This document shows, piece by piece, positions 2,771 through 33,015 of a DNA stretch of 37,127 nt. Both the position numbers and the translations under genes were made by a program. Origin of the DNA: Planctomycetota bacterium (GTDB lineage: Bacteria > Planctomycetota > Phycisphaerae > SM23-33). A model generated the notes under the pieces. The model did no database searches and was not told the DNA's origin. It saw only the letters and a list, made by a program, of their open reading frames with translations. Location of the stretch: NCBI GenBank assembly GCA_034190305.1, contig JAXHSV010000002.1, forward strand, positions 1-37,127, read 5' to 3'. Each line of letters starts with the position of its first letter. Position 1 is the first letter of the stretch.

Positions 2771-2906
2771 AAGTAAAAAGAAAAGAGAGCGGGATTACAG
2801 GACCACAGACTCCTGGGGCTCCCTGCGAGGGTCCTTCGGAAATATTTTAATGTTCTTTATCCCGTAATCTTAAAATCCCCATAATCCTTCTATCTTTCTT
2901 TTTCTT
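2771..2906. repeat. Low-complexity palindromic intergenic element, GGATTACAG family, copy 1
   Basis: The left arm aagtaaaaagaaaagagagcgggattacagg (2771-2801) is roughly the reverse complement of the right arm ...ccccataatccttctatctttctttttctt (2878-2906). It shares an exact 23-mer, taatcttaaaatccccataatcc (2865-2887), with 28309-28331. Confidence 0.7.
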
Positions 2907-2940
2907 CGATTTGACATTATCATCCAAATATCGGGACAGA

Positions 2941-3813
2941 ATGATGAAACGTCAGCCATATCGAGCGGGGAGTTTCTACGAGGCCGGTGAGGATGCCTGC
3001 CGGCGCAGCGCAAGAAAACTCCTCGACGATGCAGAGATACCGAACGATTTGCCTGAAGCGCTTTTCGGCGGGCTTGTCCCGCACGCAGGGTGGGTCTTTT
3101 CTGGCCTGACGGCGTCAATGACTTTCAAAGCGCTGGCCAGCCGCAACCGGCTTGGCAGGGTCGTCATCTTCGGCGCAGACCACTGGGGCACTGCCGGCGA
3201 CGGCGCCGTCTTTGACAAAGGCGCCTGGCTGACGCCGCTGGGAGAGGTCGCCATCGACGAAGAACTGTCCGACGCCCTGCTCGGCGGGTGCTCACTGCTT
3301 CGGGCAGACAGTTCCGCACACAATCGCGAGCACAGTATCGAGGTGCAGTTGCCCCTGATGCAGGTCGCCTGCGGCGATGTCCGAATCGTTCCGATTAACA
3401 TCTCGCCGTCGCCCGAAGCCGTCCGGGTCGGCAGGGAAGTCGGCGAGGTGCTAAAGGGGAATTTCCCCGATGCGTCGGTCATCGCAAGCACGGACCTGAC
3501 GCACTACGGGCCTCAGTATGGCTTTACGCCGGGCGGAACGGGTCCCGCCGGGCTGAAATGGGCCGAGGAAAACGACGCCCGATTACTGAAACTCATCGAG
3601 ACGATGCAGGCGGAAGATGTCATTTCCGAAACCTCCACCCATCGCAGCGCCTGCGGCGGCGGCGCCATTGCCGCAACCATCGCCGCCTGCTCGGTAATGG
3701 GCGCAACATCCGGGTTGACCCTTAAATACACCACCAGCGCCGAGGTAATGCGGCAAGTCTATGGAAACCGCTGCGACGAAGCCGTCGGCTACGTATCCGT
3801 GGTGTTCGCCTGA
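2941..3813 (+). CDS. MEMO1-family protein (AmmeMemoRadiSam system protein B type)
   Basis: ORF 2911..3813. ATG 2941 (MMKRQPYRAGSFY...) matches the family's typical R-x-P-x-x-AG-x-FY start. Also present are VPHAGWVFSG, EHSIEVQLP, DLTHYGP and ACGGGAI. No AMMECR1 or radical-SAM partner is adjacent. Confidence 0.8.
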   Translation: MMKRQPYRAGSFYEAGEDACRRSARKLLDDAEIPNDLPEALFGGLVPHAGWVFSGLTASMTFKALASRNRLGRVVIFGADHWGTAGDGAVFDKGAWLTPLGEVAIDEELSDALLGGCSLLRADSSAHNREHSIEVQLPLMQVACGDVRIVPINISPSPEAVRVGREVGEVLKGNFPDASVIASTDLTHYGPQYGFTPGGTGPAGLKWAEENDARLLKLIETMQAEDVISETSTHRSACGGGAIAATIAACSVMGATSGLTLKYTTSAEVMRQVYGNRCDEAVGYVSVVFA

Positions 3814-3828
3814 AAACGCCTTCGGGAT

Positions 3829-4074
3829 TTATTTATTGACGTACTTCTCGATGAATTCAACGGCATCGCCGACGGTCTGGACTTCCAGGGCGTCCTCGGC
3901 GTCCATGTTGATATCGAACTCTTCGTCGAAGGCCGCGACCAGTTGCACCGACTGGGTGCTCTCTGCCCCAAGGTCGAATACGAAGTCGCTTTCCGGCTTG
4001 ACCATATCCGGCGTTACGTTTAATACTTCGCAGGTTACTTTTGCGACACGTTCGGCAATCTCATTCTTATTCAT
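3829..4074 (-). CDS. stand-alone acyl carrier protein
   Basis: ORF 3829..4098; start taken at ATG 4074 (MNKNEIAERV...). About 81 aa and acidic, with phosphopantetheine attachment motif DLGAES and a four-helix ACP pattern. Confidence 0.8.
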   Translation of the reverse strand: MNKNEIAERVAKVTCEVLNVTPDMVKPESDFVFDLGAESTQSVQLVAAFDEEFDINMDAEDALEVQTVGDAVEFIEKYVNK

Positions 4075-4105
4075 GCTTTTCTCCGAAGAATAAAACAACT
4101 GCGTT

Positions 4106-4184
4106 ATTTCGTGAACTCGTTGATTCGTGAACTCGCAAACCCGCCGGGACTAACACGCATTCACGAATTCACGAATTCATTCAC
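4106..4184. repeat. Low-complexity palindromic intergenic element, TTCGTGAA family
   Basis: The left arm has ttcgtgaactcg twice (4108-4119, 4124-4135). The right arm has (a)ttcacgaa twice (4159-4167, 4168-4175), the reverse complement of the left word. The right arm overlaps the stop (4177-4179) of the acyl-CoA synthetase gene. Confidence 0.7.
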
Positions 4185-31723: not shown

Positions 31724-32692
31724 CTAACGCCTGTGCACCAGGTATCCGACATACGCCACATATCCCATCAGCAGCAGTACGGCTTCCCATCGGTCCAGTT
31801 TGCGTTTTTTTCCCGTGAACATCGTCAGAAACAGAACAATTGTGGCGGCTATCATCGCCAGCGAATCGACATTGAATAATGAGGAATAAGCGATCGGATA
31901 AACCACTCCGCTGATTCCAAGGACCATCAGCAGGTTCAGGATGCACGATCCGACGATATTTCCGACGGCTATATCGCACCGTTTCCGGTAGGCGGCGACG
32001 GCGGAGGTCGCCAGTTCCGGAAGCGACGTTCCGCCGGCGATAATCGTGCACGCTATCAACTTCTTGCTGACACCCAGTTGCGTAGCGACATCAATAGCCC
32101 CGTTGACCGTAAAACGTCCGCCGAAAAACAAGGCCGCCAGTCCGCCGACAATCATAAGCCCCGATGTCCGATAAGAGTAGGTTACAACATCATACTGGTC
32201 CACCGACTCAATCCTGGAAATCCCAAACGTGTATATCAGGAATATCGCCAGGAAACCGAGCAGCACCAGCCCGTCGGTACGGGAGAGCAAATTGGCTGCG
32301 CCGGCGCCTCCCCATGAATCGTTCACCAGCATGAACACCACAAGCGTCGCAAGCAGCAAAAACGGGATCTCTTTCCAGACGGTGTTTTTCTGAACAGTCA
32401 ACGGGTAAATCAGCCCGGCGACGCCGAGTATCAGCAGGGTGTTGGCCATATTGCTGCCAATGACGTCTCCAAAGACTATTTCATGTTGTCCGCCGCCGGC
32501 TGCAAATATGCTGATTAATAATTCAGGCGCAGAGGTTCCGAAGGCGACCACCGTCAGGGCAATTGCGATTTCTGAAATAGACATCTTCTTCGCAAGCGAA
32601 GCGGCCCCTCGGACCATCGCTTCTGCCCCGGCGATTAGCAGCACCAGTCCCGAAACTATCATCACTGTCGGCAGCACAAGGCTCATGTTCAC
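31724..32692 (-). CDS. CaCA-family cation/Ca2+ antiporter (YrbG-like)
   Basis: 322 aa and polytopic, with two alpha-repeat signatures, GTSAPEL and GTSLPEL. GTG start at 32692; ATG 32686 is an alternative. Confidence 0.85.
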   Translation of the reverse strand: MNMSLVLPTVMIVSGLVLLIAGAEAMVRGAASLAKKMSISEIAIALTVVAFGTSAPELLISIFAAGGGQHEIVFGDVIGSNMANTLLILGVAGLIYPLTVQKNTVWKEIPFLLLATLVVFMLVNDSWGGAGAANLLSRTDGLVLLGFLAIFLIYTFGISRIESVDQYDVVTYSYRTSGLMIVGGLAALFFGGRFTVNGAIDVATQLGVSKKLIACTIIAGGTSLPELATSAVAAYRKRCDIAVGNIVGSCILNLLMVLGISGVVYPIAYSSLFNVDSLAMIAATIVLFLTMFTGKKRKLDRWEAVLLLMGYVAYVGYLVHRR

Positions 32693-32830
32693 ATTTCCTC
32701 TAGAATGTGCCCGGAAGGAGCATCGAAAAACACCTCCGGAATTATCTCCGCCGGCATCCTTGAGAGTGATTATTTATTCCGGGACGCCCAAAGGCAAGAA
32801 AAGCCTTTAACTCCATCCTAAAAAAAACGC

Positions 32831-32860
32831 TTGACCGGACGGGGATAATGACGATTTAAT
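32831..32860 (+). promoter_or_regulatory. candidate sigma70-type promoter of tRNA-Gly
   Basis: TTGACC (32831-32836), 18-bp spacer, TTTAAT (32855-32860), 12 nt before the tRNA 5' end. Confidence 0.35.
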
Positions 32861-32872
32861 ACGTGTCGGTTT

Positions 32873-32944
32873 GCGGGCGTAGCTCAGTGGTAGAGCGCCA
32901 CGTTGCCAACGTGGCTGTCGTGAGTTCGAATCTCATCGCCCGCT
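32873..32944 (+). tRNA. tRNA-Gly (anticodon GCC)
   Basis: GCGGGCGTAGCTCAGTGGTAGAGCGCCACGTTGCCAACGTGGCTGTCGTGAGTTCGAATCTCATCGCCCGCT. The anticodon stem is CCACG/CGTGG with loop TTGCCAA. Confidence 0.9.
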
Positions 32945-32953
32945 TTTGCTGGT

Positions 32954-33015
32954 GGTTGGTAGCCGGTAGTCAGTAACCGGTAAGAACCGGCTACCGGCTA
33001 TTGACTACCGATTAC
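32954..33015. repeat. Low-complexity palindromic element, GGTAGCC/GGTAGTC family (possible tRNA-Gly terminator)
   Basis: ggtagtcagtaaccggta (32965-32982) pairs with taccggctattgactacc (32992-33009), an 18-bp stem with 2 mismatches and a 9-nt loop. Confidence 0.7.

Follow-up and report, generated by a model that had tools for sequence, protein, structure and literature searches.

Many intergenic spacers in a 37,127-nucleotide stretch of DNA from a Planctomycetota bacterium (contig JAXHSV010000002.1, here called the window) contain palindromes built from short repeated words, and one of these palindromes encloses a gene. This raises the question of what the gene-less palindromes are and how they came to lie between genes. 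Our analysis made it probable, if by no means certain, that they represent the gene-less form of small hairpin cassettes, of which there are two related kinds and which would be selfish inserts between genes. One kind possesses a four-helix-bundle gene and the other a GxxExxY gene. The window is contig C112 of G000, a 3.1-Mb metagenome-assembled genome of 379 contigs (55.6% G+C, 91.5% complete). Syntenic spacers were compared with those of five congeners (G001–G005) whose genes are 76–88% identical to those of G000, and four-helix-bundle loci were surveyed in 26 genomes of the taxonomic family.

Genome-wide census and word families

The words that the initial annotation had read from nine stretches of the window were present in all of them. 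Each stretch was folded as RNA and compared with 200 dinucleotide shuffles to obtain a z-score, and seven of the nine exceeded their shuffles, in agreement with the long imperfect hairpins that had been described, while those at 2771-2906 and 6354-6463 did not (Table 1). For the whole genome, a census with an ungapped stem finder (score ≥14) was used in place of an RNALfold energy filter, which had no discriminating power at 56% GC. The census identified 282 intergenic stems and 129 within a crude map of open reading frames (ORFs), compared with 0 and 16 in a genome that was dinucleotide-shuffled inside each gene or spacer. As intergenic DNA makes up only 11.6% of the genome, this result decisively contradicts the possibility, raised with the original description, that such palindromes are no more frequent between genes than in shuffled sequence. 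Of 503 stems, 36% showed an arm periodicity greater than in 95% of shuffled arms, with periods of 7, 8 and 9.

Each word consists of an invariant 5-nt core and 2–4 free positions. Within periodic stems the cores were paired at 90% and the variable positions at 63%, in comparison to 42% when the arms were shifted by one unit, for which 'imperfect, register-flexible' is an apt wording. The proposal that each spacer has its own private word was not borne out, as the words belong to multi-copy families dispersed throughout the genome. Clustering yielded word-type families of 58 copies (CGACACAGAG..., period 8), 48 (xxTCAGC, period 7), 35, 30 (AACCACAAAG, period 9; CCACAAAG, 30), 11 (GGATTACAG) and 8 (CACGAATT), and besides these non-periodic families of 29, 19, 15, 9 and 8 copies that resemble repetitive extragenic palindromic (REP) elements. 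CGTCGCCGTAT alone was near-private, with 7 genome matches. The elements do not constitute one single family of REP elements or MITEs (miniature inverted-repeat transposable elements), as the initial annotation had recognized. Unit length was 7 nt in the AATGTCT, GGTAGCC and 48-copy TCAGC families, 8–9 nt in the other four and 11 nt in one. At gathering thresholds Rfam identified three tRNAs only in the window, with no match at the hairpins and no rRNA, and a blastn search of the 170-nt CACAGAG element against plasmid and phage collections gave no match.

Two kinds of gene-bearing cassette

The palindrome reported to enclose a gene (15290-15765) proved to be a genuine one, its arms aligning as inverted repeats with a score of 28 in comparison to 10.7 ± 1.7 for shuffled sequence. 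The boundary of this cassette was set by alignment with three congeners, and its ends, AATGTCTAATG and CATTAGTCATT (CATTAGACATT in the congeners), are reverse complements bar one base. It is located between two ketoacyl-synthase genes, with its own gene co-oriented with both, and interrupts a cluster of a FabA-like dehydratase and twin ketoacyl synthases (Pfam; window 12360-19908). Twelve TIGR02436 genes were found in G000, ten of which lie within inverted word arrays, almost always of 7-nt words (scores of 15–40 for the alignment of the flanks as inverted repeats, null ~10.5); the two unarmed genes are found at a contig end and inside a longer frame. Throughout the taxonomic family the gene was present in 24 of 26 genomes, and 28 of the 35 regular four-helix-bundle loci were armed, the periodic arms having a period of 7 in all but one. 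The GGTAGCC words of the window form the arms of one such cassette in G031 (L140).

Relatives of the window protein that are 63–76% identical were found in Verrucomicrobiota, Patescibacteria, Bacteroidales and Gammaproteobacteria, and at 73 of the 75 loci in these distant phyla the arms share the word core AATGAC/AATTTC. This combination of protein identity and a common arm core points to horizontal spread of whole cassettes. It was also observed that the ends of two contigs of G000 (C229 and C14) are reverse complements over more than 100 nt and adjoin a AATGCTAAAT word arm. The orthologous site in G004 holds a four-helix-bundle cassette, while G000 has something with very long inverted ends there that breaks the assembly.

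The second kind of cassette came to light when CAGAG arms were sought at gene-length spacing, which led to a TIGR04256 GxxExxY gene in G042. All five GxxExxY genes of G000 (TIGR04256/PF13366, PD-(D/E)XK fold) lie between inverted word arms of about three 8–9-nt words each. These arms are made up of CCACAAAG-family words at C377:3091-3435, C[AG]CAGAG words at C317 and C328, CACGAATT/TTCGTGAA words at C24:13418-13759 and GCGAAT words at C45. CACAGAG arms at a spacing of 400–430 nt were not found in G000 with an exact pattern, which misses the degenerate units of C317 and C328. In the taxonomic family 27 of 28 GxxExxY loci were armed, with a best period of 8–9 in most. The GxxExxY gene of G004:C43 is enclosed by ATAGCAGGATTACAGGG...CCCTGTAATCCTGCTAT, which are the termini and A/T-rich inner flanks of the gene-less window hairpin at 28254-28337. 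The NCBIfam note for TIGR04256 presumably mentions rRNA intervening sequences.

The two kinds follow a rule, in that 7-nt words occur with the four-helix bundle and 8–9-nt words with GxxExxY. Since the arms of gene-bearing cassettes are the window's own families, we hold with moderate confidence that six of the seven word families read there are gene-less members of the two cassette kinds. The earlier suggestion that the other palindromes are empty versions of the gene-enclosing insertion was accordingly strengthened for six families, which have same-armed cassettes in G000 or the taxonomic family; the CGTCGCCGTAT array has no such counterpart. Gene-less hairpins built from the words of a given cassette numbered 43 and 41 for two TCAGC cassettes (null 1 and 0.15, respectively), 20 for the GAATATTGAA cassette (null 2.4) and 5 for the window's own (null 1.4). 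Gene-less copies retain the internal architecture of the arm, and the five relatives of the window cassette even retain its irregular arm unit (CATTGATTGG; CATTGAATAG in the cassette).

Turnover, orientation and competing explanations

Comparison of syntenic spacers among the five congeners, which had been put forward as a check for presence/absence polymorphism, revealed presence and absence, replacement by other families and series of 0–3.5 units. The site that holds the window cassette in G000 has 20–138 nt of other sequence in G002–G005, with ~20 nt in G003, unrelated elements of ~130 nt in G002 and G005, and a 28-nt direct-only GGGACTT heptamer array in G004. The cassette itself recurs in G003, G004 and G005, where arms and gene are 78–87% identical and homology stops exactly at the arm ends. 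In these three species it lies in a hydrogenase-like operon (G003:C56, G004:C10, G005:C241) that has no homologue in G000. This shows, at the level of sequence comparison, a cassette that has apparently moved or been copied to a new site. In all three it is found directly behind a small-subunit-like (NuoB-like) gene of the membrane-bound-hydrogenase-like operon, a position that echoes the hairpin of short tandemly repeated repetitive (STRR) sequences between hupS and hupL in cyanobacteria (PMC2670836). Copy numbers also differ strongly between species. G000 contains 77 occurrences of the CACAGAG arm pattern of three units, in contrast to 2 in its closest relative, 8 and 11 in congeners and 0–54 in other genera (reversed control ~0), and copies within the genome are up to 95% identical in comparison to 84–87% for orthologous genes.

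All 12 cassettes located between co-directional genes are co-oriented with them (binomial probability ~2e-4), which suggests that gene-bearing cassettes may be expressed from host operon transcripts. Our preferred explanation is that the cassettes would be selfish, mobile or recombination-spread inserts living between genes and transcribed along with the host operon. Within the transcript of that operon, pairing of the two arms would give a long imperfect stem, which RNase III may cut by analogy with the architecture of Coxiella 23S rRNA, and such cutting could make the insertion harmless. An RNase III gene (rnc) is encoded in G000. The encoded proteins would be the obvious candidates for the mobility enzyme.

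Several results weigh against this interpretation. Neither a target-site duplication at cassette ends in four genomes nor a transposase partner was found, and movement was not observed directly. As G000 is only 91.5% complete, an old paralogue may have been lost differentially, which would give the window cassette the appearance of having moved. The gene-less loops contained no remnant of either gene, so that descent by deletion is inferred from shared arms only, and no cassette partner was found for the CGTCGCCGTAT 11-mer array. Selection on the fold of the transcript was sought in the sense strand of co-directional spacers, where G:U juxtapositions numbered 305 and A:C juxtapositions 284, and in sense versus antisense stability, which stood at 77:65 (p = 0.06). 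Neither was significant, thus giving no sign that the fold is maintained, and the variable positions pair at just the 63% given above. The hairpin that follows tRNA-Gly, retained at one site in six species, looks more like a host function. Strand symmetry and the poor pairing of variable positions keep alive two rival explanations, generic host hairpins and DNA binding.

The first of these holds that the palindromes are RNA hairpins selected by the host as terminators lacking a U-tract, 3'-end stabilisers or intercistronic processing sites, in which the words are a by-product of slippage and the genes are passengers in loops. REP and STRR elements are thought to act as such transcript hairpins. 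The distribution of the elements is compatible with this role, as they lie a median of 15 nt after stop codons and their density in divergent spacers (0.49 per kb) is half that in co-directional (0.91) and convergent (1.00) spacers. The conserved GGTAGCC hairpin behind tRNA-Gly favours it as well, and STRR hairpins have been proposed as transcript stabilisers (PMC2670836). Canonical terminators in the window were no commoner than in shuffles (19 vs 23.4 and 30 vs 23.7), indicating that something else may end transcripts. However, G:U pairs and stability show no strand bias, 33 copies lie in divergent spacers, and orthologous spacers of 6–20 nt in congeners lack the elements altogether. The 77 CACAGAG arm copies in comparison to 2 in the closest relative, the near-identity of copies within the genome and an arm architecture common to gene-bearing cassettes are likewise difficult to reconcile with host selection, and we regard this explanation as unlikely. 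The statement that these are not ordinary intrinsic terminators agreed with our data. A T-rich tail (≥7 T in the 12 nt after the stem) follows only 10% of stems, the median loop is 18 nt and none was recovered in the terminator scan, on which grounds intrinsic (Rho-independent) termination was rejected; the missing U-tracts and the lack of strand bias led to the same conclusion.

Alternatively, the words may act at the DNA level as arrays bound through their 5-nt cores by a cassette or host protein, with the inverted layout serving cruciform formation or looping and not RNA folding. An invariant core beside 2–4 free positions, with pairing of 90% and 63%, respectively, is what such arrays would present, and the palindromes are strand-symmetric. 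One protein subfamily retains the same word core across phyla, and the period goes with the protein family, at 7 nt for one and 8–9 nt for the other. This association of protein and word is explained equally well, however, by co-inheritance of arm and gene in one cassette. Furthermore, the numbers of CACAGAG arms and cassette genes do not track each other, as shown by G016, in which no CACAGAG arm accompanies the 10 four-helix-bundle and 3 GxxExxY genes. We consider DNA-level arrays quite improbable as the principal explanation.

A broader and more speculative interpretation, which we find doubtful yet conceivable, is that each of the two proteins would act in trans on its own word arrays. Proteins and arrays would together form a system of autonomous and non-autonomous mobile elements that lacks a transposase, and of which the STRR and heptamer palindromes of many phyla are the gene-less members and the classical intervening sequences (IVS) the rRNA-borne ones. 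Under this interpretation a pentameric Avd-like four-helix bundle would read the heptamer arrays, and cleavage of the hairpin or cruciform of the 8–9-nt arrays would fall to the GxxExxY PD-(D/E)XK nuclease.

Mobilisation as REP elements or REPINs (REP doublets forming hairpins) by Y1 transposases of the REP-associated tyrosine transposase (RAYT) type was also considered, since the genome has 8 Y1_Tnp matches, one of which (C189:2658-2924) has copies of a palindrome family on either side. That family (GGGTGGCACGG...), however, is not periodic, the 900 nt to each side of every Y1 transposase gene contain no word-type hairpin, and the word families have gene-bearing partners of their own instead, which leaves this explanation with very little probability. 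The C189 locus (2355-3330) is in itself a classic REP-RAYT layout, with a non-periodic GGGTGGCACGGGTTGCTTGCAACCCGTG family of 8 genome copies. Assignment to MITEs was rejected, as there is no target-site duplication and the same-ended partners encode four-helix-bundle or GxxExxY proteins and not a known transposase.

Known systems and the elements of the window

The closest known counterpart of the four-helix-bundle cassette is the IVS found in the 23S rRNA of Leptospira and Coxiella burnetii, which carries the same PF05635 'S23p' gene in the loop of a long inverted-repeat stem, with heptamers adjoining the start codon and the gene co-oriented with the host transcript, as in the window. The Coxiella IVS combines a PF05635-family gene, a 28-bp stem and tandem heptamers, and its cleavage in vitro by RNase III has been demonstrated (Warrier et al. 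2016, PMC4990558), and IVS have been proposed to be former mobile elements (PMC4990558). Unlike the IVS, which occupy helix 25 or 45 of 23S rRNA, the cassette described here lies between protein-coding genes in a window that has no rRNA. Many arm families per genome, a gene-less majority and a second kind with a PD-(D/E)XK-fold gene are further differences.

Inverted heptamer arrays have been described in Xanthomonas, with 70–75 convergent array pairs per genome, and in Nostoc and Geobacter, alongside the cyanobacterial STRRs (Rehm et al. 2015, PMC4692102; Aklujkar et al. 2009, PMC2700814; PMC2670836). Like the elements of the window, these are short intergenic tandem units, mostly of 7 nt, often arranged as convergent stem-loop pairs and over-represented between co-directional genes. 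The word families analysed here also consist of two convergent arrays able to form a stem-loop. The papers on STRR and heptamer arrays associate no gene family with them and interpret them as G-quadruplexes or regulator sites, whereas the arrays in our genomes have their arms in common with either four-helix-bundle or GxxExxY cassettes and include 8–9-nt families. REP elements, bacterial interspersed mosaic elements (BIMEs), REPINs and MITEs are similar to the present elements in being multi-copy imperfect extragenic palindromes of several families, with bursts and a gene-less majority beside few gene-bearing relatives; they differ in that no RAYT or transposase partner of the word families and no target-site duplication is found here, and in that the arms are tandem words with free positions and not a single fixed palindrome.

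Our search of the accessible literature returned no paper in which heptamer or word arrays outside rRNA were connected with PF05635 or GxxExxY genes. Heptamer arrays without a named gene and IVS with an S23p ORF are already known, and the tie of such arrays to two kinds of cassette outside rRNA appears to be new. Three long-unexplained things are thereby linked, namely tandem-word palindromes, the small ORFs of rRNA IVS and the large orphan families TIGR02436 and TIGR04256, and the comparisons within the genus supply concrete filled, empty and replaced sites. A 'repeat of unknown function' becomes testable through the action of RNase III on mRNA stems, the binding or cutting of arrays by the proteins and the movement of cassettes. 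On the practical side, contigs end at these elements, which therefore disrupt metagenome assemblies.

Table 1. Cassette parts and word-repeat elements located in the window (z, folding score relative to shuffles).
Feature	Position	Strand	Description
Cassette left arm	15292..15341	+	7-nt words AATGTCT/AATGACC; start codon within last unit
Four-helix-bundle gene, 121 aa	15339..15704	+	PF05635 23S_rRNA_IVP / TIGR02436; E 1.2e-11 and 5e-18
Cassette right arm	15701..15765	+	words GACATTA/GTCATTA; ends in CATTAGTCATT
Degenerate GGATTACAG-family element	2771..2906	.	one left unit, nested GC-rich insert, three right units; z -0.8
TTCGTGAA/CACGAATT-family gene-less hairpin	4106..4184	.	convergent spacer; z -3.9
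Direct array of ~nine CGTCGCCGTAT 11-mers with two short CGTCGCCGTACCGGCGACG palindromes	6354..6463	.	outlier; z -0.65
CACAGAG-family long form, ~170 nt	8864..9034	.	hairpin proper 8915-8996, three 8-nt units per arm; z -9.2
CCACAAAG-family gene-less hairpin, 9-nt units	11263..11338	.	between two minus-strand genes; z -3.6
Second CCACAAAG-family hairpin	13388..13466	.	orientation inverse to 11263-11338; z -2.1
GGATTACAG-family gene-less hairpin	28254..28337	.	tig-clpP spacer; termini ATAGCAGG...CCCGCTAT; z -4.4 (stretch 28243-28345)
CACAGAG-family gene-less hairpin	31590..31664	.	within ~135-150-nt insertion; z -7.4
GGTAGCC/GGTAGTC hairpin, 7-nt units	32954..33018	.	directly after tRNA-Gly 32873-32944; z -5.8 (32954-33015)

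The individual elements of the window were followed in the congeners and in contigs from four DNA runs of one marine study, the only runs found for window 8000-16000 and with no RNA run among them, which were overlaid on it. Depth in this overlay was at repeat level and the boundaries of families could be seen, but a clean variant with presence or absence of an element was not found. The two GGATTACAG-family elements have near-identical right arms (2771-2906 and 28254-28337). Contigs of this family diverge at 2900, and the spacer syntenic to the first element is 18 nt in G005. In the tig-clpP spacer the left arm comprised 0, 0, 1.5, 2.5, 3 and 3.5 units in the six species, the zero state being ATAGCAGGATTAC|CCGCTAT. 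A collapsed mini-form of the same element, AGCAGGATTAC[AAT]CCCGCTAT, was seen at several sites (L199:1370-1400 in G004:C43; the tig-clpP spacer in both G001 and G004), and could represent a footprint of excision, a seed or a target.

The element at 4106-4184 is missing from the syntenic spacer of G002–G005 (9–47 nt), and the site of the array at 6354-6463 is a 19-nt spacer in G002 and holds a different hairpin in G005. At least 57 copies make up the CACAGAG family, and ~15 long forms among them are 85–95% identical to the window copy. Contig depth at this long form reached 263 in comparison to ~19 elsewhere, and contigs branch off at 8864 and 9032. The insertion around the second family member, at 31590, is missing in G001, G004 and G005 (spacer 6–10 nt), and G002 also has an element there. 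In G059 and G034, members of two other genera (L163–L167), CACAGAG-family elements form nested double hairpins of ~200 nt, with outer arms CGACACAGAGACTCAGAGGCTCAGAG...CGAA around an inner hairpin of like words, and G059 has 54 arm matches.

With regard to the CCACAAAG family, the spacer at 11251-11345 has another word family in G003 and direct word repeats in G005, while G002 and G004 have a different common spacer that retains only the first unit of the CCACAAAG family. For the hairpin at 13388-13466, G003 and G004 have an orthologue, G002 a replacement and G005 no counterpart. In three runs, contigs connect the two CCACAAAG hairpins at 11307 and 13430 on opposite strands, the joined sides being only 29–35 nt. 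This junction could reflect an inversion polymorphism affecting the intervening 2.1-kb segment, or else an artefact of the assembly graph at the repeat.

The hairpin behind tRNA-Gly occupies the same site in all six species, with turnover of units and nested inserts. A direct-only TTTCCGAT/CTCCAAT word run that has no inverted partner follows tRNA-Leu (22747-22800). Finally, an element resembling a thiamine pyrophosphate (TPP) riboswitch is found on the minus strand at 25489-25597, upstream of the minus-strand gene 24866-25444, with a score of 49.3 bits (E 9.9e-9) that is just below the Rfam gathering score of 54.3. Its spacer of 332 nt is highly structured (-145 kcal/mol) and contains a terminator-like hairpin at 25469-25450.

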